A stretch of DNA of 64,000 bases, taken from IMG/VR virus record IMGVR_UViG_3300006145_000004, positions 1-64,000 of that record; one strand, 5' to 3'. How positions within the stretch are numbered: position 1 is the stretch's first letter; each line of letters starts with the position of its first letter. Positions 5,159-49,803 of the stretch are shown here, piece after piece. A program made the position numbers and the translations under genes. Below the pieces are notes generated by a model, which worked only from the letters and a program-made list of their open reading frames with translations, had not been told where the DNA came from and searched no databases. Source of the DNA: a virus. Lineage: Duplodnaviria > Caudoviricetes.

Positions 5159-5230
5159 GGATTTATAACTCTATTGGAGAGTAATCAGTTTTAAGATAAC
5201 AGATTTTGGGTTCAAGTCCCAATAAATCTT
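5159..5230 (+). tRNA. tRNA-like element/pseudo-tRNA with broken anticodon stem
   Basis: acceptor GGATTTA/TAAATCT, D-stem ACTC/GAGT, T-arm TTGGG-TTCAAGT-CCCAA at canonical spacing; anticodon stem ATCAG/ATAAC pairs 2 of 5. Confidence 0.7.
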
Positions 5231-9720: not shown

Positions 9721-11841
9721 ATGGAAGAAATATTAAACTCATATTATGAGAATAATGCTGCAAAACTTCACAAAATGGTAAACCAAATATTTTATAGAAA
9801 ATTTGGTGGTATTACAGATAGAGATATGGACGAATTTTATTCTGTAGCTAATGATGTATTTGCAGATATATGGAAATATAAGAGGTATGATTCATCTAAA
9901 GGCGATTTTGAGGGATTTTTATATAGAGCCTTAAATTTGGCTTTTGTAGATGAACTCAAAAGACAAAATAGAGATAAAAGAAGAACAAAAATTGATGTAT
10001 TAGATGAAAACGGCAATAAGGTGTTAGATAAGAATGGAAAACCGAAAAAAATATCAATACCTGATGTCTATATGGATGCTCCTATCAATGAAGGTGAGAA
10101 TTTAACAATTGGAGATACATTACAATCTGATTTTAATATGGATACAATATTATTGGAAAAGAATAAAAATTATTATAGTGACAAAATAGAAAAATTTCTC
10201 GATAGCCTTTCATTAACGCAAAGACATATTGCTCAGCTAATTATGAAAGGATATGATACAAAAAAAATTAAGTCCATTATGGATATAACAGACAAGCAAT
10301 ATAGAGATTCTTGGAATGTAATTTGTTCATATGATAAAAAAAGAGCTTTATATGAAGAAAGTAATGACATGGAGGAAGGAAAAATGAACAATTTAGCTGT
10401 AGAAGAAAATGTAGAAGAAAAATATAAAAATACCAGTTATAGCATTGAATCAATAAGTAGACAGCTAAAGAAAAAACGAATCCGAGATGATCATATTTTG
10501 CAGAGACATAGTGGACAATGGAAGAACTTTGAAAAGAGTGAGTTAATTTCTGATATATTGAGAGGAAAATCTTTAACTCAAATTGTTATTTGTGAAGAAA
10601 TTAAAAATGGTATTAAGATGCAGTGGCTTATTGACGGGAAGCAAAGATGCACTACTTTAGATGACTTTTTACATGATGGATTTGCAATTTCCAAAAATAT
10701 AAAAAATTATAATATTCGTTTCCAGGCCCCCAAATTAGATGAAAACGGTAAAGAGGTCTTAAATGCAGACGGGTTTACAGATATGGAGTGGAAAACATTT
10801 GATATTCGTGGTAAAAAATATTCTCAGTTACCTGAAGAATTACAAGATATCTTTCGCGATAGACAGATACCTGTTTTATACAATATGAATTGTACTAAAA
10901 AGGATATTGCAGAAGACATTGCTAGATTTAATAGAAATAGACCAATGAATAAAGCCCAAAATGGATGGCTTGGTTTAGATGAAAGATTTGCAGAATTTGT
11001 TGAAAATATAGCAAAAATGGATTTCTTTCAACCAGAATTTTTAGGTACTGGATATACAAAAGTAAATAATACTGCTGGTAGTATAAGAAGAATTATAGTA
11101 GAAGGAATTATGGTAGCCGATTTTAGCGATAATTTTTCTAAGTTTGAAAAAATGTGTGAATTTTTATCAGAAGAGGCTAGTGATTCAAATTTTACAGAAT
11201 TTTATTCTTTAATTGAAAGATTAACTGTAATTTGTAAGACAAAGGCAAGTGCTGCCTTATTTAATACTAAGGATTCTTTATTGTGGTTCGGGTTGTTTTC
11301 CAGGTTTTCAAAGTTAGGTTTGAATGATAAAAAATTTGGAGAATTTATGAATGAATTTGAAACTCTGCGTAAAATGAAAATTGAAGGACAATCATTTGAT
11401 GATATATTGGCGAGTAGTAAATCTACAAAAGATAAGAGTATTGTAATGAAAAAGATTAATCACTTAGAAAAACTAATGAATATTTACTTGAATATTCATG
11501 AGAACAAAAATCAAGATAATGAAATTGTAGATACTCTTGAATTTATAAGAGAAAATGTAACTCCTAATATAACTGATGAAGATGTTGAGCAGTATAAGGA
11601 AGTTCTGGATTCATTAACATTAAATGTAGATAATTCGTCTAAGTTGTTAGATGACATAAACCAGGTATCACTTGTGGCTATTGTGGCATATTCATTTGAG
11701 AATGATATTGATTTAGACAAATGGATTGTAGACTTCTTTGAAAGAAATAAAACATATAAGCAAAATCAAAAAGAGAATTATTTACATATGAAATCAGATA
11801 TACAAAAATTTATCAATTATAATAGTAAAAAGAATACATAG
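9721..11841 (+). CDS. Sigma70-like N-terminus fused to DUF262 (GmrS/ParB-like) domain
   Basis: region-2-like RYDSSKGDFEGFLY, region-4-like FLDSLSLTQRHIAQLIMKGY; DUF262 motifs LQR, IDGKQRCTTL, ARFN. Confidence 0.65.
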   Translation: MEEILNSYYENNAAKLHKMVNQIFYRKFGGITDRDMDEFYSVANDVFADIWKYKRYDSSKGDFEGFLYRALNLAFVDELKRQNRDKRRTKIDVLDENGNKVLDKNGKPKKISIPDVYMDAPINEGENLTIGDTLQSDFNMDTILLEKNKNYYSDKIEKFLDSLSLTQRHIAQLIMKGYDTKKIKSIMDITDKQYRDSWNVICSYDKKRALYEESNDMEEGKMNNLAVEENVEEKYKNTSYSIESISRQLKKKRIRDDHILQRHSGQWKNFEKSELISDILRGKSLTQIVICEEIKNGIKMQWLIDGKQRCTTLDDFLHDGFAISKNIKNYNIRFQAPKLDENGKEVLNADGFTDMEWKTFDIRGKKYSQLPEELQDIFRDRQIPVLYNMNCTKKDIAEDIARFNRNRPMNKAQNGWLGLDERFAEFVENIAKMDFFQPEFLGTGYTKVNNTAGSIRRIIVEGIMVADFSDNFSKFEKMCEFLSEEASDSNFTEFYSLIERLTVICKTKASAALFNTKDSLLWFGLFSRFSKLGLNDKKFGEFMNEFETLRKMKIEGQSFDDILASSKSTKDKSIVMKKINHLEKLMNIYLNIHENKNQDNEIVDTLEFIRENVTPNITDEDVEQYKEVLDSLTLNVDNSSKLLDDINQVSLVAIVAYSFENDIDLDKWIVDFFERNKTYKQNQKENYLHMKSDIQKFINYNSKKNT

Positions 11842-14900: not shown

Positions 14901-14958
14901 AGAAGGGGATAAGGAGGCTTTTATATAAAGTAAATCATGAATTTCCTCCTAATTTTAT
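14901..14958 (+). promoter_or_regulatory. Twin-palindrome leader, copy 1
   Basis: AGGAGG...TATATA-7-TCATGA...CCTCCT-8-ATG. Confidence 0.7.
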
Positions 14959-15651
14959 ATGAATTTATATAATGATGATTGTTTTAAAGTAATGAAAATG
15001 TTAATCAACCAGAAATTAAAAGTGGATGCAATAATTTGCGATCCTCCATATATAATCAATTATACTGATTGGGATAAAGAGTTTGATATGCCTATGGTAG
15101 TAGACTTATCATATGAATTATTAAAAGATAATGGAAATTTAATATTATTTCAAGGATGGTCTAATGTTGCTAAAACAAAAGAGTTATTAGATAAAAAGTT
15201 TAATATTCAAAATTGGATAGTATGGGATCGTATTAAAGGACGTGGTGCAAAGAAAAATTTTGTATCAACAAGAGAAGATATTTTATGGTATTGTAAAGGT
15301 AATAATCCTACATATAATAAAATTTATTCTAATATACCTAAGAAAACTGGAGGAATGGGAAAGAAAAATGGGCAAGAATGTAGAGCATTAACTAATGTAT
15401 GGTATGATATTTCACCAATTGTTCCATGGAGTCCCGAAAGAAATGGTCATCCAACTCAAAAGCCATTACAGTTAATGGAAAGATGTATAACTATCTGGAC
15501 TAATGAAGGAGATATGATTTTAGATTTTACTATGGGGAGTGGAACAACTGGTGTTGCTGCATTAAAGCTTAGTAGAAACTTTATAGGAATTGAAAATGAT
15601 AAAGAATGGTTTGATATTTCTAAAAAGAGAATGGAAAGCTTATTTTATTGA
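14959..15651 (+). CDS. DNA N6A/N4C methyltransferase (beta class)
   Basis: DPPY near N-terminus, HPTQKP, LDFTMGSGTTG. Confidence 0.92.
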   Translation: MNLYNDDCFKVMKMLINQKLKVDAIICDPPYIINYTDWDKEFDMPMVVDLSYELLKDNGNLILFQGWSNVAKTKELLDKKFNIQNWIVWDRIKGRGAKKNFVSTREDILWYCKGNNPTYNKIYSNIPKKTGGMGKKNGQECRALTNVWYDISPIVPWSPERNGHPTQKPLQLMERCITIWTNEGDMILDFTMGSGTTGVAALKLSRNFIGIENDKEWFDISKKRMESLFY

Positions 15652-17891: not shown

Positions 17892-18656
17892 ATGATATAT
17901 ATTAAAGAAGTTCTAAACAGAATAATACTTTTGTTTAGTGCCATTATAATATGGGAATTGTGCTCAAGAAATGTTAATCCATTATTTATTCCTGAGCCTA
18001 AAATAGTATTTAATAGTTTAGTTGAATTGATAAAAAGTGGACAGTTGTTTATTGCAATTATGTATTCCTTTTTGAGAATTTCCATAGCCACATTTTTGTC
18101 AGGAATAGTTGCATTTCTTATAGGCTTATTGGCGTATAATTCAAAAATTGCAAACAATATTATAAGTCCAATAATTAGTATCATGAGATATATACCCATC
18201 ACTGCCTTTTATCCATTATTGATTATGTGGTTTGGCATTGATGAATTTATGAAAATTGTATTTTTATTTATTGCAACTTTTGTCTATATGATGCCGTCTG
18301 TAATTTTGTGTTTAGAAGAAATCAACTTAGATTTAATAGATACAGGACTTACAATAGGGATGAATAGGTTTCAGATAATTACAAAAATACAGATACCAGC
18401 TATTACTCCAAGTTTAATGAACAGCTTTATTATGATGTATGGAATTGGTTGGACTTATATTGCAGTTGCAGAAACAATAAATGCAAAATATGGACTTGGA
18501 TTTATTATTCAACAGTCATCTTCTAGGGGAAGAACAGACTTAGTATTCATGGCAATTATAGTAATTATGATTATAAGTGTATTATTTGATAATCTAACCA
18601 AGAAAATAGTAAAAAGAGTCTTTAGATGGAGGTATCTGAATGATAGTACTGAATAA
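17892..18656 (+). CDS. ABC transporter permease (SsuC/TauC-like)
   Basis: multiple TM segments, RYIPITAFYPLLIMWFGI, AETINAKYGLG. Confidence 0.9.
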   Translation: MIYIKEVLNRIILLFSAIIIWELCSRNVNPLFIPEPKIVFNSLVELIKSGQLFIAIMYSFLRISIATFLSGIVAFLIGLLAYNSKIANNIISPIISIMRYIPITAFYPLLIMWFGIDEFMKIVFLFIATFVYMMPSVILCLEEINLDLIDTGLTIGMNRFQIITKIQIPAITPSLMNSFIMMYGIGWTYIAVAETINAKYGLGFIIQQSSSRGRTDLVFMAIIVIMIISVLFDNLTKKIVKRVFRWRYLNDSTE

Positions 18657-19263
18657 TCTATATACTGGATACTCCAGAAATTCACCATTATTAACAGAAT
18701 TTAATTATCGATTTGATAATAAAATTTATGGAATCTTAGGTGAATCTGGTTGTGGTAAAACTACTCTTTTGAGAACAATCGCTGGATTAACTAAACCATT
18801 ATACGGAGAAGTAATTATTAATGGGATAAAGAATAATAGAACAGGTAAAAATGGAATTTATATGTTACATCAAAATTATACTTCTTTCGATTGGTTAACA
18901 TGCTTAGATAATGTGCTTATTGCTAAGAAAGTAAAAGGAAAGGTTACACAAGAAGATATACAAAATGCTTTTAAAATGCTAGAGGCAGTAAAACTTATTG
19001 AACATGTACATAAATATCCAAGACAATTATCTGGAGGTATGAGACAAAGATTAGCACTAGCAAGAACATTATTTGTACAACCACATATTATTTTAATGGA
19101 CGAGCCATTATCTGCATTAGATGGAGATACTAGAGCAGATATGCAAAAGCTTATTTTTAATTTACATAATAAGATTAAAAATACAATTATCATGGTTACT
19201 CATAGCAGAGATGAAGCGGCAAAACTCTGTGATGTAGTGATAAATCTAAATAACTTTAAATAA
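18640..19263 (+). CDS. ABC transporter ATPase
   Basis: GESGCGKTT, LSGGMRQR, LMDEP, VTH. Confidence 0.95.
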   Translation: MIVLNNLYTGYSRNSPLLTEFNYRFDNKIYGILGESGCGKTTLLRTIAGLTKPLYGEVIINGIKNNRTGKNGIYMLHQNYTSFDWLTCLDNVLIAKKVKGKVTQEDIQNAFKMLEAVKLIEHVHKYPRQLSGGMRQRLALARTLFVQPHIILMDEPLSALDGDTRADMQKLIFNLHNKIKNTIIMVTHSRDEAAKLCDVVINLNNFK

Positions 19264-19281
19264 AAAGGAGGGACAGAATAC

Positions 19282-19842
19282 ATGGGATTATTTGAAAAAC
19301 TTGGTCTTGTAGAAAAGATTCCTAATGAAAACACTTATTCAAATTATATTGATTGCCAGGAATCAAGTAAAATTGAAATGCAATGGGAAGATCAATCTAA
19401 AGCTGAAGTTAGTGAGGTAAATCAAGATACTCTTATTGAAGATATCTACTCCCAAAATGATTTATGTGATCGAACAAAGTCTATTTTTAAGGTTGAGGAT
19501 CTCATTAATTCTTTACCTAAAGAGATGGTAACAGAAACAAAGAGAAATTCTGTAACAGCTATACTTGAAAGTTTTCAATTTACTTCTATGGAAATAATTG
19601 ATGATGGGAAAAAAAGAATAAATGTTTTATCCTGTCTAATGAAGCAACTTGAGCAATCAACTCAGCAAGAAATAGAAACTAAAAATGCTCATATTGAAAG
19701 TCTAAAAGAGGAGATAGCATGTATGCAAGCTGAAATTGTAAAACAGCAAGAAGTAATAACTATTTCTACTAGAGTCATCACATCAGAAATAAATAGAATT
19801 CAGTCATTGGTAGATTTTGTTAATGGAGGTACAAATTTATGA
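19282..19842 (+). CDS. Coiled-coil hypothetical protein
   Basis: MGLFEKLGLVE amphipathic start, coiled-coil C-terminus. Confidence 0.65.
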   Translation: MGLFEKLGLVEKIPNENTYSNYIDCQESSKIEMQWEDQSKAEVSEVNQDTLIEDIYSQNDLCDRTKSIFKVEDLINSLPKEMVTETKRNSVTAILESFQFTSMEIIDDGKKRINVLSCLMKQLEQSTQQEIETKNAHIESLKEEIACMQAEIVKQQEVITISTRVITSEINRIQSLVDFVNGGTNL

Positions 19843-20576
19843 CATTATCAACATTGTTAGTTTATATTGTAGTGCTTTTAGTCCTATTAATATTTATATT
19901 GTTTCCAGAAGCAAGGAAACTTTTAAAAGGGTTTATAAGACTTTTCATAAAAGACATGGCTTCTACCCCTGAAGGAGCTGAGGCTATTTATTCTGAAAAG
20001 ATAAATGAAGCTCAGGAATCTTATAATAAAGCTGATGATGCTTATAAGAAGGCAGCAGGTAAATTGAGCAATGCTAGAAAAAACCTTAATATTTTAAAGA
20101 TAAAAATTAAGGAATGTGAAGAAAAATGTGAGAAGCTTGTACAAAAAGGAGATTTAGAATCAGCTCATTTGAAAGCTGAGGAAAGAGAAGAAATTCTTGC
20201 AGATATTGAGAGATGTACTACTCTTATTAAAGCTTATGAAGATGCTGAATTGACAGCACATGAGGCTTATGACTTATGTCAGAATAGATTGAAGAATCTA
20301 CAAAAAGAAAAGAGAGAGATTGTAGAGAACATGAAAGTTAAGGCTCAGTTAAAAGATATTTATGATGATACTGACGATCTGAAAGCTGCTACTACAACTG
20401 ATAAACTATTAGAATCTGTTCGAGAGAAAAATAGAAGCCTTGATGAGATAGTAGAAGGTTCTAAGGTGGTTCATAACAATAAAGCTTCGACAAAATTTCG
20501 ACGTGCTGACGAGAAAGCAAAAAAACTGCAAAGTAATGATTATCTGGAAAGTTTAAAAAAGAAGTACAATAAATAA
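19839..20576 (+). CDS. PspA/IM30-like coiled-coil protein with N-terminal TM
   Basis: TM, then TPEGAEAIYSEKINEAQ and long heptad repeats. Confidence 0.6.
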   Translation: MTLSTLLVYIVVLLVLLIFILFPEARKLLKGFIRLFIKDMASTPEGAEAIYSEKINEAQESYNKADDAYKKAAGKLSNARKNLNILKIKIKECEEKCEKLVQKGDLESAHLKAEEREEILADIERCTTLIKAYEDAELTAHEAYDLCQNRLKNLQKEKREIVENMKVKAQLKDIYDDTDDLKAATTTDKLLESVREKNRSLDEIVEGSKVVHNNKASTKFRRADEKAKKLQSNDYLESLKKKYNK

Positions 20577-20598
20577 AAATAATTTCAAGAAAGGAAAA

Positions 20599-22242
20599 GT
20601 GAGCATGAAAACAAGAAGGTTCAGATTAACAAAGACAGCGAAAATTTTGATTATGTTATTGTTGATTACTATGATTGGAGGTGGAGTTTATTATGGAATA
20701 AGCTCAGGCATTATTAGAACTGAAACAGAAAAAATTAATAGACTAGCTAGTAGTGAGTCTCAAAAAAATGCAGAAGTGACAAACCTAAATACAGCTACGA
20801 ATAATGCATCTATTCCAGATAAAGATGGAAATATCATCAATACTAATAAGTCTTCAACCTCAACTATCAATGTATCTCTTGATGAATGGATAGGTTGGAA
20901 GCCCATTATTGATGCAAATGGTGGATTATCAACAGAAAAGGGGTCTATTTATGATAAGTTAGGTATTACTGTAAATATCAGTGTAATAAATGATGCTACT
21001 CAATCTAGTAATGCACTTATTAGCGGAAAATTAGATGCCGCTGGTTATACCATAAATCGTGTAGCATTTTTGTCTAATAAATTTAAAGAGGCTGGAAATG
21101 ATGTAATTATGCCTTATATTACAAATTTTTCAAATGGCGGTGATGGTATTATTGCTAAATCTAATATTACAAAAATTACTGATTTAGTAGGTGCTAAGAT
21201 TGGAGTTCCTCAATTTTCAGAAGCCCATTCATTGATAGTATGGTTTGTTAATCAGTCTGATTTATCTAAAGATAAAAAACAGAATATTATTGATGAGCTT
21301 ATCTTCTTTGAAACTCCAGATGAAGCTGCTAAAGCATTTTTTACAGGAAGTGTAGATGTAGCTGCAACTTGGGAACCCTATTTGACTCAAGCTCAGAATA
21401 TGAGTGATGCACATATATTATTTAGCACAGCAAGTTCTACAAGTCTTATTATGGATGGTATTCTTTTTAATAAGTCTTTTGCAGAGAAGAATCCGGATCT
21501 TGTTACTAAATTTATTGATGGAGCATTACAGGCAAATGATATGTATGATACTGAACTTAGCACTATTAAAAAAGTTATGCCTATGTTCGCTACAGCTTCG
21601 GATGAAGATGTCAAAGATAATTGTTCAGGTGCTAGGCTAATGACTTATACCGATAATCTTTCAATGTTTAATGGTACAGCAAGAACTATATATGTTGGTA
21701 TGTGTGATGTATGGAGTTCTATTGGTGAAAGTGTTAATAGAGAATTAGTTAATACCTTGTATGATGATACTTATATTAAAGCTTTGGCAGATAAGTATTC
21801 TGACCAACCTATTACAAAAACAGAAGCTATGGTTACAGTAAATGAGAATAACAGGCAAAGTGTATTAGATGCAGAAGCTTTGCTTGAAAAATCTGCAACT
21901 GTGAATTTTGTAATCAATACAGCTAAATTTTCCGATAGTGTAGAAGCTACCCAGAAGTTGAATGAATTTATTGAGATTGCAAAAGTATTAGATGGAACTA
22001 TTATTGAGATTGAAGGAAACACTGATCCAAACCCAAACACAGATCCTGATGATAAAGCAAATAAAATGTTATCTCAACAACGTGCAGAAACAGTAAAGCA
22101 ATATTTCATTCTAAATGGCATTTCGGCTGACAGAATTATTTCTGTAGGTAATGGATCAAGTAATCCTATTGTAGAAAATGATACGGAAGAACATCGTGCA
22201 ATGAATAGAAGAACAGATGTATCTTTTAAAATCATTGAATAG
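20599..22242 (+). CDS. Substrate-binding protein (NMT1/THI5-like) with C-terminal OmpA peptidoglycan-binding domain
   Basis: SNGGDGII, VDVAATWEPYL; IEIEGNTD, LSQQRAETVKQY, NRRTD. Confidence 0.85.
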   Translation: MSMKTRRFRLTKTAKILIMLLLITMIGGGVYYGISSGIIRTETEKINRLASSESQKNAEVTNLNTATNNASIPDKDGNIINTNKSSTSTINVSLDEWIGWKPIIDANGGLSTEKGSIYDKLGITVNISVINDATQSSNALISGKLDAAGYTINRVAFLSNKFKEAGNDVIMPYITNFSNGGDGIIAKSNITKITDLVGAKIGVPQFSEAHSLIVWFVNQSDLSKDKKQNIIDELIFFETPDEAAKAFFTGSVDVAATWEPYLTQAQNMSDAHILFSTASSTSLIMDGILFNKSFAEKNPDLVTKFIDGALQANDMYDTELSTIKKVMPMFATASDEDVKDNCSGARLMTYTDNLSMFNGTARTIYVGMCDVWSSIGESVNRELVNTLYDDTYIKALADKYSDQPITKTEAMVTVNENNRQSVLDAEALLEKSATVNFVINTAKFSDSVEATQKLNEFIEIAKVLDGTIIEIEGNTDPNPNTDPDDKANKMLSQQRAETVKQYFILNGISADRIISVGNGSSNPIVENDTEEHRAMNRRTDVSFKIIE

Positions 22243-22335: not shown

Positions 22336-22436
22336 AAGATTATGCTTTGTGTGGTGTCATAGCCACACAGGGTATTTCAAGACTATTTATAACCTGTAAA
22401 TTAGTTAATAAATAATCTATTTTAATATAAAAATAC

Positions 22437-22492
22437 AGAAAGGAAAAGGGTGTTGCAACCGTAAGATGATCATGCCTTTCTGGTAAAAATAT
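22437..22492 (+). promoter_or_regulatory. Twin-palindrome leader, copy 2
   Basis: AGAAAGG...TTGCAA-8-TGATCA...CCTTTCT...TTG. Confidence 0.7.
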
Positions 22493-23206
22493 TTGCAGTA
22501 TTTTGGAGGAAAATCAAAAGTATCAAGACAGATTGTAGATTATTTAGAATCTGTTAGAAAAGAAAATCAATTATATGTAGAACCATTTGTGGGAGGTGGA
22601 ATAATTTGTTCTAAAATGAGTGGTAATAGAAAAGCATATGATTTCAATGAATATTTGATTGAAATGTACAAAGCTGTACAAAAGGGTTATGAATTACCAA
22701 GTTGTATTAGTGAGCAAGAGTATAAATACATAAAAGCTCATAAAGATGAAAATAAAGCATTAACTGGATTTGTAGGGTTTGGATGCAGTTTTGCAGGTAA
22801 ATGGTTTGGTGGATATGCAAGAGATGGCAGAAAGAAATATGATTTTGCTTATACAGCAAAATTAGGATTACTAAAGAAAATGTCAACAATGATGGATGTT
22901 GACTTTGAGTATGCGAATTACAAAGATTTATCCTTTGAAGATTGTATTATTTATTGTGATCCACCTTATAATGGTAAAACACAGGCATATGGTACAGGAA
23001 ACTTTAATACAGAAGAATTTTGGAAAGTTATGCGTTTATGGTCAAAAAATAATGATGTTTATATTTCGGAATACGTAGCTCCAGATGACTTTAAATGTGT
23101 TCTTGAAATACCTACAAGAATTGATATTAGAAATAGAAATAATAAAATGGAAAAAAGAGTAGAAAAACTCTTTGCTTATAAGAGGGCATTGTATAAAAAA
23201 TTTTGA
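22493..23206 (+). CDS. D12-class (Dam-like) adenine methyltransferase
   Basis: YFGGKS, EPFVGGG, YCDPPY. Confidence 0.9.
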   Translation: MQYFGGKSKVSRQIVDYLESVRKENQLYVEPFVGGGIICSKMSGNRKAYDFNEYLIEMYKAVQKGYELPSCISEQEYKYIKAHKDENKALTGFVGFGCSFAGKWFGGYARDGRKKYDFAYTAKLGLLKKMSTMMDVDFEYANYKDLSFEDCIIYCDPPYNGKTQAYGTGNFNTEEFWKVMRLWSKNNDVYISEYVAPDDFKCVLEIPTRIDIRNRNNKMEKRVEKLFAYKRALYKKF

Positions 23207-23209
23207 AAT

Positions 23210-23250
23210 ACGGCTACTGCCCCCCTAACTTTAGACAATCGGTAGTTCAC
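23210..23250 (+). mobile_element. IS200/IS605-like right-end remnant
   Basis: CGGCTACTGCCCCCCTAACTTTAGACAATCGGTAGTTCAC. Confidence 0.45.
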
Positions 23251-23332
23251 AACTTTGTTTTAATTGATGTAATAGAACTAAATATAACAATTAAGCATAT
23301 GCAGAAATGAAATAATTCAAAATAAAAAATAC

Positions 23333-23388
23333 TAGGAGGAAATGAGGTTTGTGCGCACAAGAAATCATGATTTACTCCTAAGCAAAGA
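23333..23388 (+). promoter_or_regulatory. Twin-palindrome leader, copy 3
   Basis: TAGGAG...TTGTGCGCACAA-G-AAATCATGATTT-A-CTCCTA...TTG. Confidence 0.75.
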
Positions 23389-24225
23389 TTGAAAGAAAAA
23401 TATGTAAAAAGTTCACTTAACTATATTGGTGGTAAATATAAATTGCTTCCACAGATTTTGCCATTATTTCCAAATCATATAAGTGTATTTATAGACTTAT
23501 TTGGTGGGGGATTTAATGTTGGTGCAAATGTAAATGCAGAACATATAGTATATAACGATATATGTGAGCCAGTAGCAAAGTTATTAAACCATATAAAAGG
23601 TAGTGATATTGAGAAGTTATTATCTGAAATTGATGGGTATATAGAACAATATCAATTATCAAAAGAAAATAACGAAGGGTATTTACAGCTTAGAGAAAAT
23701 TATAATAAAGGGCTTAAAACACCAATGAAATTTTATACATTATTATGTTATGCATTTAATAATCAAATCAGATTTAATAAAAATGGGGAATATAATATGC
23801 CTTTTGGAAAGAATAGAAGTAGTTTTAACCCATCTTTAAGAAAAAAATTTATTGATTTTTATAAAAAAGTTAATGATATAGATTGTATATTTTTAAATAT
23901 TTCTTTCGATAAATTTGACTTTTCAGATTTAGATAATAATGATTTTGTGTATTGTGATCCTCCATATTATAATAGTATAGCTTCATATAATGAACAAGGT
24001 GGATGGACTGAAATCCATGAAAAAAAATTATTGTCTATATTAGATTTACTTAATGATAAAGGAATTAAATTTGCCTTGAGTAATAATTTAAAATACGATA
24101 ATCCACTTTTGGAAAAATGGAAAAATAAATATGATGTTCACTATTTGATTGGTAATTATAGTAATTGTAATTATCAAAAGAAAGACAAAAGTAAAGATGT
24201 AGAAGTATTAATTACAAATTATTAG
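23389..24225 (+). CDS. D12-class (Dam-like) adenine methyltransferase
   Basis: NYIGGKYKLL, DLFGGG, RFNKNGEYNMPFG, YCDPPY. Confidence 0.92.
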   Translation: MKEKYVKSSLNYIGGKYKLLPQILPLFPNHISVFIDLFGGGFNVGANVNAEHIVYNDICEPVAKLLNHIKGSDIEKLLSEIDGYIEQYQLSKENNEGYLQLRENYNKGLKTPMKFYTLLCYAFNNQIRFNKNGEYNMPFGKNRSSFNPSLRKKFIDFYKKVNDIDCIFLNISFDKFDFSDLDNNDFVYCDPPYYNSIASYNEQGGWTEIHEKKLLSILDLLNDKGIKFALSNNLKYDNPLLEKWKNKYDVHYLIGNYSNCNYQKKDKSKDVEVLITNY

Positions 24226-24289
24226 TTGCAAATTCATTTTAAAGTAAAAACTACAGCCTCTTATATATTATAAAAGGCTATGCAAAAAG

Positions 24290-24529
24290 TTATTCATTTA
24301 GGTGGTGGTTACATATAGTACAATAATCAACTCCAAATTCTGCATCGCACCATTTGCCATCGTGTTCACAATATACTCGAAGAAAGTCACCTTTTTCATA
24401 AGATTTTTCTTCATTAACACTAGAAGGGTTTACCCAACATTTTCTTGCAAATGGACAATTAGACAGGTCGTCCCAATCTGTAAGAACAGGAAAATTGAAA
24501 ATAGGGTTATTTCCATTCATAAACAACAA
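24290..24529 (-). CDS. Cys-rich small protein
   Basis: AAGGAGG RBS, several Cys. Confidence 0.5.
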   Translation of the reverse strand: MLFMNGNNPIFNFPVLTDWDDLSNCPFARKCWVNPSSVNEEKSYEKGDFLRVYCEHDGKWCDAEFGVDYCTICNHHLNE

Positions 24530-24604
24530 CCTCCTTAAAACTATAATACTATAATTATAATAACTATAAAAATGAATTGCAATGAGTTTAGTAAAGAAGT
24601 GTCA

Positions 24605-24745
24605 ATGATATACACAAGTTACTTCGTAAAGTTAAAAGAGTTAGAAAGACCTAATATTATCCCAATATCAATTTGCAGTAAAGTACCAGATTGGTATAAA
24701 GGATTACAGTACAAGAGGCTAGATCCGAAATATGAATTAATGTAG
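24605..24745 (+). pseudogene. Truncated DUF488-like gene
   Basis: MIYTSYF...PISICSKVPDWYKGLQYKRLDPK then stop. Confidence 0.45.
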
Positions 24746-24800
24746 AAAGGATAAATTAGTAGCTAGCTTTAAAGGTTGCAACCGCTTTAGGTACTAATTA
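24744..24800 (+). promoter_or_regulatory. Twin-palindrome leader, copy 4
   Basis: AGAAAGG-ATA-AATTAGTA-GCTAGC-8-TTGCAA...TACTAATT-A-TTG. Confidence 0.65.
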
Positions 24801-25614
24801 TTGAAAAACAATACTATATTACCTCCATGTTCATATCAGGGAGGTAAACAAAGAGTTTCAAAAGAAATTGTTGACTATATTTTAAGTACTACAACATTTA
24901 ATGATAGCACAAAATTTTTCGATTTATGTAGTGATTCAGGTGCTATTAGCCTTGAACTAATGAACAGAGGTATTAAGCCAGAAAATATTATTATAGATGA
25001 TTGGAGATGGTAGCTTTTTATATAAAAAGTTTTTAACATATGCAGATATAGTTCCAAGAGATAAAACAAAAATACAAAAATATATTAAAGAATTATCAAA
25101 AGAAAATGCAGATATAGATGAGTGTTATAAATATATTTTATTACAAGCAGCATCATTTGGTGGTAAACAAATTTGGAAGGAAAATAACGAATGGAAAAAT
25201 ACGTCATTTAGAAATTATTGGCAACCAACAGCTACAAGTAAAAGGAGAAGTCCTGTTAATCCAATGCAACCTATGATAGATATTTTATGTAAAAGAATAA
25301 AAGTTATTTCTGAAAAGTGTATTGGAATTCAGTGTATTTATGATGACATTTGGACTATATTGCAAATTATACCAACGGAAAATTGTATTATATACATAGA
25401 TCCACCATATTATAATAGTACAAAATATGGTTTTAATTTTAACTTGAATGATTTTTTAGGTGAATTATTTCAAAAAACATTAAGTCCTATATTTGTATCT
25501 GAAAAGGAAAAAATTTCGGAGGAGGCAATTAAACTAAATTTTAATGGAGATAAAGGAGGAATTAGCAGAAATAAGAAATGTAAAAATGAAGAATGGTTAA
25601 ATATATATCGATAG
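24801..25614 (+). pseudogene. Frameshifted D12-like adenine methyltransferase
   Basis: YQGGKQR and DLCSDSG in one frame, YIDPPY in another; break near 25000. Confidence 0.75.
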
Positions 25615-25710
25615 GAATTTATTTTATTAACTTTTAAAGTTAGATAATCAAATATTTAGTATAATGTTAGGAGTATGTTCTACGATAATATTATGATGAA
25701 AAATAAAATA

Positions 25711-25765
25711 TAGGAGGTAAAGAGGTTTGTCATGACAGAAAAGTGCACTTTACTTCTGAATTATA
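25711..25765 (+). promoter_or_regulatory. Twin-palindrome leader, copy 5
   Basis: TAGGAGG...TGTCATGACA-GA-AAAGTGCACTTT-ACTTCT...TTG. Confidence 0.75.
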
Positions 25766-26941
25766 TTGAAAATAGCAATTATAGATGCAGATTTAATAAG
25801 TAGGAGTAATCATAGATTCCCAAACTTAGTTTGTATGAAATTGTCAGGTTATTATAAAGAACTTGGTGCTAAAGTGGAACTGAAAATAGACTATAAAGAC
25901 TTACTAGGATATGACAAAGTATTTATTTCTAAAATATTTACTGATACACCAATAGATGAGAAAATTTTGGAATTTCCAAATGTAGAATATGGGGGTACAG
26001 GATTCTTTTATGATAAAGCTCCAAAGCTTCTTGATGAAGTAGAGCATCATATGCCAGATTATCATTTATATGATAAGTGGGTAAATGAAAAATTAAAAGA
26101 GGGTCATAAAAGGAAAGATTTTTCTTATTATCTTGATTGGTCAATAGGTTTTCTTTCAAGGGGTTGTATTAGACAATGTAGTTTCTGTGTAAATAAAAAT
26201 TACAAATCGTGTGAAGTACATAGTAATTTATCAGAATTTCTTGATAATGATAGACCTTATATATGCTTACTTGATGACAATGTATTAGCATGTAAAGATT
26301 GGAGAAGTATATTTGAGGAACTCATTGCAACTGGTAAGAAATTTCAGTTTAAACAAGGTTGTGATGAGAGACTTTTGACAGATGAAAAATGTGAAATACT
26401 GTTTAATAAGTCAAAATGGATTGGTGATAGAATATTTGCATTTGATAATATTAAAGATAGAGAGATAATAGAGAAAAAGCTTCATATGATAAGGAAATAT
26501 ACTAATAATCAAATTAAATTCTATACATTTTGTGGTTATAATCATGACAACATAGGAGTTTATGATGAGGAGTTCTGGGTAAAAGATATAGAAGATTTAT
26601 TTGAACGAATTAAGATTCTAATGACCTACGGGTGTCTACCATATGTAATGAGATTTAAAGATTATGTTCTAAGTCCATATAAAGGAATTTATATCAATGC
26701 TGCAAGTTGGTGTAATCAGCCCAGTTTATTCCGTAAAATGAGTTTTGCTGAATATAGTATGGCAAGGGGTATGAGTAATAAAAATTATAAGAAGTATAAA
26801 ATGGATTTTGATTCATACCTAGCAGATGGTAATAAAAAAGGTTCATCGTGGAGATATTATGAAAAGTTTTTGAGTAAATATCCTGAGATAGCAGAGAAGT
26901 ATTTTCATATGAAGTGGAATTATTCCAATAGGAACAGTTAA
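25766..26941 (+). CDS. Radical SAM enzyme
   Basis: SRGCIRQCSFC; N-terminal IAIIDAD...FPNL..MKLSGYYK; LLDDN. Confidence 0.8.
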   Translation: MKIAIIDADLISRSNHRFPNLVCMKLSGYYKELGAKVELKIDYKDLLGYDKVFISKIFTDTPIDEKILEFPNVEYGGTGFFYDKAPKLLDEVEHHMPDYHLYDKWVNEKLKEGHKRKDFSYYLDWSIGFLSRGCIRQCSFCVNKNYKSCEVHSNLSEFLDNDRPYICLLDDNVLACKDWRSIFEELIATGKKFQFKQGCDERLLTDEKCEILFNKSKWIGDRIFAFDNIKDREIIEKKLHMIRKYTNNQIKFYTFCGYNHDNIGVYDEEFWVKDIEDLFERIKILMTYGCLPYVMRFKDYVLSPYKGIYINAASWCNQPSLFRKMSFAEYSMARGMSNKNYKKYKMDFDSYLADGNKKGSSWRYYEKFLSKYPEIAEKYFHMKWNYSNRNS

Positions 26942-48982: not shown

Positions 48983-49035
48983 AAGGGGAACAGAACTCTG
49001 GCCAGAGTGATGACATGTCAGTTCTCTCTTAAAAG
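48983..49035 (+). promoter_or_regulatory. Twin-palindrome leader, copy 7
   Basis: AAGGGG...ACTCTGGCCAGAGT-GA-TGACATGTCA-GTTCTCTCTT...ATG. Confidence 0.75.
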
Positions 49036-49803
49036 ATGGAGTCAATTAAAAACTATGATGTTTATATAAATGGAATGAGAAAATCTTTAAAAGATAAATT
49101 ATTTTTTATGAATATGACTGAAGCTGTTGATACCCTGATAGATTTTGGATGTGCGGATGGGGAATTATTAAAAGAAGTACATCAAAAATTTCCACAGTAT
49201 AGATTGATTGGAATAGATTCTGATCGAGTTATGTTGGAAAGAGCAACAAATAAGGTTTCAAACCTTTTAATAATAAAACAAAGAGGATTACCAAAACTTT
49301 CGATAGAATTAGCTCAAAATGCTATTTTAAATATGAGTAGTATAATTCATGAAATTTATACATATTCCAATAAATACGAAATTTCAGATTTCTGGCATAA
49401 TGTATTTAATACTGGATATAAATATATTTCAATTCGTGATTTGATGATGGGCAAAAAGTCCTATAGATTTGCTCAACAATTAGAAATTGAAGCTATTAAA
49501 CAGAAAATAGATAAAATCCAATTAGAAGATTTTATAAAGCAGTGGGGTGATATAAAAACTGAAAGTTCTCTTATTCATCTTCTTTTAAAATATAGATATA
49601 AAGAAAATTGGGAAAGAGAAGTGAAAGAGAATTATTTTCCAATTACTGTTGAGGAGTTTTTGAGTATCATTCCAACCAATCAATATAAAATTATCTATTT
49701 TGATCATTATATGCTACCATTTAATAAAGAACAAATATGGAAAGATTTCGGAATTAAATTAAAGGATAATACACATATGAAAATTTTACTTGAAAGAATA
49801 TAG
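49036..49803 (+). CDS. Class I SAM-dependent methyltransferase
   Basis: LIDFGCADG, LIGID, SSIIHEIY. Confidence 0.8.
   Translation: MESIKNYDVYINGMRKSLKDKLFFMNMTEAVDTLIDFGCADGELLKEVHQKFPQYRLIGIDSDRVMLERATNKVSNLLIIKQRGLPKLSIELAQNAILNMSSIIHEIYTYSNKYEISDFWHNVFNTGYKYISIRDLMMGKKSYRFAQQLEIEAIKQKIDKIQLEDFIKQWGDIKTESSLIHLLLKYRYKENWEREVKENYFPITVEEFLSIIPTNQYKIIYFDHYMLPFNKEQIWKDFGIKLKDNTHMKILLERI

Follow-up and report, generated by a model that had tools for sequence, protein, structure and literature searches.

A candidate family of phage mRNA leaders whose palindromes change in register and covary as if kept for RNA self-complementarity

The DNA analysed here (the window) is the first 64 kb, positions 1 to 64,000, of the 122,368-bp IMG/VR virus record IMGVR_UViG_3300006145_000004 (Duplodnaviria; Caudoviricetes), which has 29% GC and an estimated completeness of 65 and whose DNA is present in mouse-gut metagenomes of 11 studies. 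The window holds six short leaders, c1 to c6, on the + strand throughout and mostly ahead of DNA methyltransferase genes, in which an outer stem (P1) encloses two palindromes (P2 and P3; one only in c4). Across relatives the palindromes are exchanged for others while their symmetry is kept, down to the central base pairs, and sequence comparison together with energy modelling supports selection at the RNA level for self-complementarity, most simply through pairing in trans. The explanation that we favour is that the leaders form a large family of cis-acting 5' mRNA elements, hitherto unannotated, that temperate Bacillota phages carry; taken whole, with dimer pairing included, we hold it to be quite possible, if short of probable.

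The exchange of palindromes can be followed ahead of orthologous genes. Among orthologs of the c3 gene the P2/P3 cores are TGCGCA/TCATGA in the window, AAGCTT/TGTACA in L131 and ACCGGT/TGCGCA in L276, and a zinc-ribbon gene, nearly identical over its N-terminal 60 residues in the copies listed, carries TGTGCGCACA, TTGGTCGACCAA or TTGACCGGTCAA as P2. The scaffold is kept and the palindromes are replaced in register, both halves changing, via G·U intermediates. An initial annotation of this DNA had proposed that hexamers are wholly replaced in register and that what is selected is self-complementarity rather than one fixed binding site; both proposals are supported, given the unrelated palindromes of orthologous leaders and the covariation at all tested pairs, a measurement that the annotation had recommended. 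The alignment comprised 34 distinct same-length leaders without gaps; of 41 distinct 36-nt cores, 33 came through a pairing filter, which dropped four odd-centre P3 cores and four chance matches and none over a mismatch at the tested pairs. In the named structure 97.1% of 408 cells were paired in the 34 leaders, against 67.6% in shuffles, a percentage that the filter makes partly built in while leaving the diversity of pair types unaffected. The covariation score was 0.775, against 0.165 after shuffling, with none of 500 shuffles as high and slid controls at 0.03-0.10. Every variable pair shows all four Watson-Crick types, adjacent central pairs included: central columns 21-22 hold 21 CG, 6 AU, 4 GC, 2 UA and 1 UG, and central columns 34-35 hold 10 AU, 10 GC, 7 CG, 4 UA and 3 UG. 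The P2 and P3 hexamers of one leader are never identical (0/67), and the GC content of the central hexamers is 67% in P2 and 55% in P3, with 37% in their context.

The central pairs were also analysed in a wider set under neutral scoring, with at least 353 instances and 136 distinct cores, 85 of them parsed (among the 51 rejected cores, six have an odd centre and the majority of the rest match by chance in unrelated taxa). In 47 P2 and 33 P3 variants, taken as independent by eye rather than from a tree, the two central pairs make up 160 cells: 144 Watson-Crick, 13 G·U on the sense strand, no A·C and three others. Cleaning of this set (removal of L577 and L447, which are not leaders, and of the decayed L320) left 11 G·U, two transversion mismatches and no A·C, one of the 11 G·U (L164) being ambiguous in register. 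The G·U variants persist, at 27, 10, 2, 2 and 2 loci, the remainder at one locus each. Neighbouring downstream genes supplied a neutral spectrum on the same strand, with polarised changes C>T 40, A>G 68, G>A 49, T>C 56 and transversions 44; summed, 108 changes make G·U, 105 make A·C and 44 are transversions, which puts the G·U-making share at 42%, with no strand bias. With L164 left out, at least 10 G·U among 12 departures has a P of about 0.004 at p = 0.42, and ten G·U against zero A·C a P of about 0.001. Strand-biased mutation as the cause of the G·U-only departures is ruled out by the 108:105:44 spectrum of the adjacent genes. Stepwise paths were found within one flank context (CCGG, CTGG, CTAG), as well as from TCCGGA to TCTGGA and from CGTACG to CGTGCG. 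Five of six central wobbles stand in 5'-UG-3' order, the one with the greater predicted self-duplex stability (-13.4 vs -11.0 kcal/mol for two test 12-mers), and further 5'-UG-3' cases were seen by eye in other scaffold types, in L085 (CCAT/GTGG) and L013 (GCT/GGC). Self-complementarity is kept while the sequence varies, the centre included. Since the central bases could not pair in a hairpin, yet covary with tolerance for sense-strand G·U, these data are most simply read as pairing of each palindrome with its like on a second RNA molecule. The initial annotation had favoured intermolecular pairing on the ground that the two hexamers of a leader cannot pair with each other; it gains indirect support from the hexamers always differing and from central G·U without A·C or mutational strand bias.

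The six leaders of the window and their parts are the following (SD, Shine-Dalgarno).

Leader c1, 14909..14961 (stem span 14909-14953), + strand, ahead of the N6_N4 DNA methyltransferase gene 14959-15651, start ATG 14959; 5' arm ATAAGGAGG 14909-14917 pairs with CCTCCTAAT 14945-14953.
c1 palindrome 1, 14920..14929, + strand, TTTATATAAA.
c1 palindrome 2, 14932..14944, + strand, AAATCATGAATTT, the TCATGA core plus one additional A.
Leader c2, 22436..22495 (stem span 22436-22482), + strand, followed by the D12 methyltransferase gene 22493-23206, start TTG 22493; arms CAGAAAGG 22436-22443 and CCTTTCTG 22475-22482.
c2 palindrome 1, 22452..22459, + strand, GTTGCAAC.
c2 palindrome 2, 22466..22473, + strand, ATGATCAT.
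Leader c3, 23333..23391 (stem span 23333-23380), + strand, followed by the D12 methyltransferase gene 23389-24225, start TTG 23389; arms TAGGAG 23333-23338 and CTCCTA 23375-23380, with a second SD-like GAGG at 23344-23347.
c3 palindrome 1 (P2), 23349..23360, + strand, TTGTGCGCACAA.
c3 palindrome 2 (P3), 23362..23373, + strand, AAATCATGATTT.
Leader c4, 24754..24803 (stem span 24754-24799), + strand, followed by a methyltransferase-like gene in two frames, start TTG 24801, 1 nt past the stem; arms AATTAGTAGCTA 24754-24765 and TAGGTACTAATT 24788-24799, with an SD-like GAAAGGA 5' of the stem.
c4 palindrome, 24774..24783, + strand, GGTTGCAACC; a second c4 palindrome, AGCTAGCT at 24761-24768, is absent from the relative L013.
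Leader c5, 25712..25768 (copy span 25711-25757), + strand, followed by the radical-SAM-domain gene 25766-26941, start TTG 25766; arms GGAGGTAAAG 25713-25722 and CTTTACTTCT 25748-25757, two G·U pairs included, with an SD-like AGGAGG from 25712 and GAGG at 25722-25725.
c5 palindrome 1 (P2), 25728..25737, + strand, TGTCATGACA.
c5 palindrome 2 (P3), 25740..25751, + strand, AAAGTGCACTTT, its 3' half overlapping the P1 3' arm.
Leader c6, 48992..49038 (stem span 48992-49025), + strand, followed by the class-I methyltransferase-like gene 49036-49803, start ATG 49036; arms AGAACT 48992-48997 and AGTTCT 49020-49025.
c6 palindrome 1, 48995..49008, + strand, ACTCTGGCCAGAGT.
c6 palindrome 2, 49011..49020, + strand, TGACATGTCA.

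The gene behind c4 is split into overlapping frames, 24801-25013 and 24997-25614, and could be a frameshifted pseudogene or contain a programmed shift. Leader c1 sits 11 nt downstream of an integrase gene.

P1 has arms of 6-12 nt that are complementary in all six window leaders and enclose about 22-31 nt. Five of the six copies have a purine-rich, SD-like 5' arm opposite a complementary pyrimidine 3' arm; the SD-like tracts are AAGGAGG, CAGAAAGG, TAGGAG and AGGAGGTAAAG, c6 has AAAGGGG immediately 5' of its AGAACT arm, and the c4 stem is not SD-like. The palindromes within the stem are perfect and 8-14 nt long, and c3 and c5 share the scaffold TAGGAGG-N4-GAGGTTTG ... TTTACT(C/T)CT. The start codon lies 1-11 nt past the 3' arm in the window and mostly 8 nt past it in the wider family; it is TTG in four of the six window leaders, no SD was found at the usual distance from the start in any of the six, and the reading frames cannot be extended into the leader. 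The masked SD stands 40-50 nt before the start, so not at the 5-10 nt spacing expected of the start's own SD. P1, an SD-like tract paired to an anti-SD tract, covaries across scaffold types (AGGAGT/ACTCCT, AGGAGC/GCTCCT, CAGAAAGG/CCTTTCTG, AATTAGTA/TACTAATT, AGAACT/AGTTCT), and two leaders of one contig differ both in their palindromes and in P1 (AGGAGT/ACTCCT vs AGGAGC/GCTCCT). In a stem-bridged ribosome binding site, of the T4 gene 38 type, a single stem is closely flanked by the SD on its 5' side and by the start on its 3' side; this layout was found in c4 and L013 only, and the c4 stem would place the upstream SD beside the start. In the other leaders the SD is within the stem, and a second, unpaired GAGG is at the top of P1. 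A scan for promoters and terminators around the leaders gave a lower count of promoter-like sites than shuffles did, and no start site that could be used. One metatranscriptome run gave contigs across 23023-23437, the c3 leader included; these contigs cannot show transcript ends, strand or level, could stem from DNA carry-over, and were not used as evidence.

A covariance model trained on relatives together with c3 and c5 scored c3 at 68 bits and c5 at 59.4 bits, and c1, outside the training set, at 28.2 bits (E-value 1e-5); nothing else in the whole genome was convincing. The letters quoted in the initial annotation for copies 3 (23333-23380) and 5 (25711-25757) were found as given and align without gaps, and copy 1 (14904-14952) does fit their frame, but with one inserted base. 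Copies 2 (22436-22482) and 4 (24754-24799), like c6, belong to other scaffolds with the same architecture. All five leaders of that annotation stand, and a sixth, at 48992-49025, has to be added; the outer SD:anti-SD stem and the real, SD-less start codons had also been overlooked. The scaffold word GAGGYTTK is not enriched (5 matches vs 5.75 expected), nor are palindrome pairs of at least 10 bp genome-wide (4 observed vs 2-20 in 30 Markov-2 simulations), 3/4 of which are accounted for by the leaders; it is the comparison with relatives that is far beyond chance for the leaders. Rfam 15 at the gathering score gave tRNA only in the window, and at E-values up to 10 no relevant family, a 'D12-methyl' motif included (22380-25820; three canonical leader loci). 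The tRNA gene, at window 5159-5230, is the window's only Rfam match. In the open-access literature we found no bacterial or phage mRNA leader controlled by self-pairing, a 27-nt leader string had no match in open-access papers, and the main text of PMC5737381 names no such motif; its 224-motif list, in the supplements, could hold a related one.

Family members were sought with the pattern GAGGTTT, 16-26 nt, TTTACTCCT, with or without an upstream GGAG. Phage and prophage contigs with the leader scaffold number in the hundreds and come from Lachnospiraceae, Anaerotignum and Enterococcus, the leader counts in viral and metagenome contigs being lower bounds. Among bacteria taken at one genome per species, 98 stretches match the pattern, many by chance in unrelated phyla, and the leaders among them are mainly from Lachnospiraceae, Anaerotignum, Enterococcus, Roseburia, Eubacterium and Clostridium. 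Enterococcus faecalis phages carry one leader type. The leader of L320 (Enterococcus ureasiticus) has decayed, with altered bases in P2 and a P3 short of one base, and only a 60-codon frame follows it. For homologs of the c5 gene, 80 viral loci were fetched and a leader was seen by eye in 14 and not in the rest; six of these leaders are c5-type, one is c3-type, one c4-type, and the last six form a further type whose palindromes are CATG-centred and GCTGCGCAGC. A c4-type leader stands ahead of a radical-SAM homolog in L013 and a c2-type leader ahead of a c1-gene homolog in L085. Since homologs of the c5 and c1 genes thus occur under other leader types, leaders and genes have been shuffled. Homologs of the c2 gene (0/3) and the c6 gene (0/11) have no leader and have ordinary SDs, and a relative-locus search with the c3 gene found no relative. 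Many radical-SAM homologs (L004-L007, L011, L026, L039, L041) have apparent weak starts (TTG, ATT, ATA), leader or not.

The genes directly downstream of the leaders are not homologous to one another. Most are DNA methyltransferases of unrelated folds (C5, N6, N4/N6 and D12); the others encode radical SAM proteins, a sigma factor, a double-zinc-ribbon protein, a D5-like regulator, a PAPS-reductase-like protein and an SNF2-methyltransferase fusion. A single leader sequence (GTCGAC + GAATTC) recurs unchanged ahead of no fewer than seven different genes.

The energy model was applied to isolated 12-mers and to whole leaders. The mean minimum free energy (MFE) of the 12-mers as hairpins was -0.8 kcal/mol for P2 and 0.0 kcal/mol for P3, and as self-duplexes -18.4 and -12.0 kcal/mol. 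Predicted homodimerisation of the leaders was -16.7 kcal/mol for c3, -15.3 for c4, -14.1 for c5 and -19.9 for c6, with shuffle means of -5.7 to -7.7 (standard deviation about 2-2.8). The flanking stems are 3-4 A-U rich pairs and do not provide a stable-stem loop for kissing; an extended duplex would be the only plausible form of the dimer.

We propose that each module would pair with its own copy on a second leader molecule, giving an RNA duplex of 10-16 bp. Inner P1 (UAAA/UUUA) and P3 would compete for one U-tract, and a P3 duplex would shorten or re-set the SD:anti-SD clamp; because P3 shares the 3' U-tract with inner P1, dimer formation would re-set this clamp. Translation or stability of the leader mRNAs would then depend non-linearly on their own concentration, in either direction; a gene might, for example, be silent from a single prophage copy and changed in lytic replication. 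More speculatively, and here we are inclined to doubt, phage mRNAs may sense their own concentration by homodimerisation through two orthogonal, fast-diversifying modules that re-set the clamp, DNA-modification and early regulatory genes being switched as transcripts rise with genome copy number, while an 'address' particular to each leader would avoid cross-pairing. The initial annotation had suggested cross-talk through TCATGA; the hexamer is indeed shared by three leaders (14935, 23365, 25730), but it is not enriched (30 TCATGA vs 34 expected genome-wide), and any cross-talk is conjectural. Heteroduplexes between leaders, read from the sequence, would span 6-9 bp only.

Several observations weigh against pairing between molecules or limit how far it can be taken. 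Both central transversion mismatches (pair 2) are singletons, pair 3 has one A·C singleton, and one of the six central wobbles has the less stable 5'-GU-3' order. The palindromes of c1 and c2 are weak, AT-rich or 8-nt, and the predicted dimerisation of these leaders (-5.4 and -5.8 kcal/mol) is no better than that of shuffles. The invariance of GAGGTTT and TTTACTCCT comes from the design of the search. Support for leader dimers is comparative and thermodynamic throughout, bimolecular RNA pairing may be slow at cellular mRNA levels, and translation of a start 40-50 nt from the SD is left unexplained. Finally, the odd-centre P3 class AAACGC-A/T-GCGTTT fits a 5-bp hairpin with a triloop and would have a mismatch in a duplex. 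This class suits the strongest competing explanation, an ordinary intramolecular leader of three helices, with the SD masked by P1 and with P2 and P3 as small hairpins, their symmetry being a by-product of how hairpins originate (template switching, gene conversion between paralogous leaders) and not of selection. Leader and gene recombination is clear, three of five single-leader folds are better than shuffles (z -2.3 to -2.9; c2 z -2.93), and RNAalifold draws P2 and P3 as hairpins plus GAG/CUC pairing, but the hairpins are unstable in the energy model, with the P3 mean MFE of 0.0 and a consensus folding term of +0.67. Hairpin loops should moreover drift freely, yet G·U makes up 11 of the 13 cleaned departures, against about 42% expected of neutral change, and A·C none of them, and the GC-rich cores are left unexplained. 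We consider this explanation unlikely, though it is the most serious of the alternatives.

An origin at the DNA level appears improbable. The palindromes would then be sites or operators of methyltransferases, restriction enzymes or dimeric regulators, or structure-specific recombination junctions that move cassettes, and it is true that the hexamers resemble type II sites (GTCGAC, GAATTC, GCGGCCGC, TGCGCA and others), that methyltransferase genes follow, that cassettes are shuffled (L013, L085) and that c1 lies so close behind the integrase gene. Yet the same leader stands ahead of different enzyme families, orthologous genes differ in their palindromes, and the site does not track the specificity or family of the adjacent enzyme. 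The two sites within a leader always differ, and the departures from symmetry are strand-specific, sense G·U and no A·C, which double-stranded recognition does not predict. Nor are leader hexamers avoided elsewhere in the genome (TCATGA as counted above; TGATCA 26 vs 24 expected), and restriction-site avoidance was rejected on this count. Several other palindromic hexamers are strongly avoided in the whole record (ACTAGT 0 vs 11.7 expected, CTGCAG 0 vs 18.0, CAGCTG 0 vs 13.9, TTCGAA 0 vs 10.1, TCTAGA 1 vs 10.2 and GTTAAC 4 vs 17.7), which suggests pressure from host restriction systems.

Least credible of all is that a short upstream open reading frame (ORF), or a stem bridging SD and start, drives translation with palindromes that supply only CATG starts or spacing: the stop TGA of an upstream ORF overlaps the TTG start in c3, upstream ORFs in c2 and L085 stop 4-6 nt before the start, stop and start overlap in 10 family members and c4 has its SD just 5' and its start just 3' of the stem, but the stops scatter over three frames relative to TTG (43/29/24 of 96 TTG cases) and over many positions (-27 in 19, -9 in 16, +1 in 10 and many others, among 113 distinct leader-start combinations), most palindromes have no ATG, and the central covariation is unexplained. 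A conserved upstream ORF ending at or near the main start was rejected, the stop positions not being conserved.

Four other features of this DNA were noted. Within the radical-SAM gene, at window 26321-26368, an 11-bp stem CTCATTGCAAC/GTTGTGATGAG encloses the palindromes GAAATTTC and GTTTAAAC; the palindrome pair is also present in the relative L011, with a weaker 6-nt stem, and may be a chance effect of coding sequence. Between methyltransferase genes, window 17892-22242 holds genes for an ABC-transporter permease and for a fusion of a substrate-binding protein with an OmpA domain. Window 9721-11841 encodes a 706-aa protein with a match to the GmrSD N-terminal domain and a weak match to sigma-70 region 2. 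Near the contig end, outside the window (121627-121663), are two copies of the 12-bp palindrome TCTTGTACAAGA, 25 bp apart.

Gut phages and Enterococcus prophages carry the family in abundance, ahead of genes that set phage DNA methylation; the leaders therefore bear on the timing of anti-restriction functions. Their size of 45-50 nt and their natural variants make them a ready-made mutant series for the dimer hypothesis.

To our knowledge, functional RNA homodimers occur in retroviruses and a few eukaryotic mRNAs and are otherwise rare. Retroviral dimer linkage sites include the leader palindromes and paired stem-loops of Moloney murine leukaemia virus (MoMuLV). According to PMC7357161, retroviral dimer linkage, as in the dimerisation initiation site (DIS) of human immunodeficiency virus type 1 (HIV-1), relies on self-complementary segments of 6-16 nt in the 5' leader that stay palindromic while lineages differ, with two modules side by side and with hairpin and extended duplex as alternate forms. 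Unlike these sites, the elements described here belong to phage mRNAs, lie within an SD:anti-SD stem directly before the start and have no packaging role; they also lack a long stem and unpaired purines to present a kissing loop, and their palindromes turn over far faster. The 3' untranslated region (UTR) of oskar mRNA, a case of homodimerisation and clustering described in PMC7357161 and PMC13549266, has a palindromic loop with a GC-rich sequence of six nucleotides, through which the mRNA pairs with itself in a concentration-dependent manner. That case is eukaryotic, serves localisation and has one conserved sequence in the 3' UTR, whereas the phage leaders have two hypervariable modules at the 5' end. 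Like RNA thermometers and small translational riboswitches, the phage leaders pair an anti-SD with an SD-like strand near the start of non-homologous genes, but they differ from SD-sequestering leaders in the 40-50 nt that separate the masked SD from the start, in lacking a conserved ligand-type core and in having no Rfam match. Among phage- or Bacillota-linked RNAs, GOLLD, ROOL and OLE self-associate with the backing of intermolecular covariation, according to PMC12286853. They are large non-coding RNAs of hundreds of nucleotides, while the phage elements are mRNA leaders of 45-50 nt. Methyltransferases are also known to autoregulate through sites or operators near the promoter, as with C-boxes and systems of the M.SsoII type. 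The phage leaders resemble these systems in placing palindromes ahead of methyltransferase genes, but their sites are not tied to the adjacent enzyme, are unlike each other within a leader and show an asymmetry of the RNA type.

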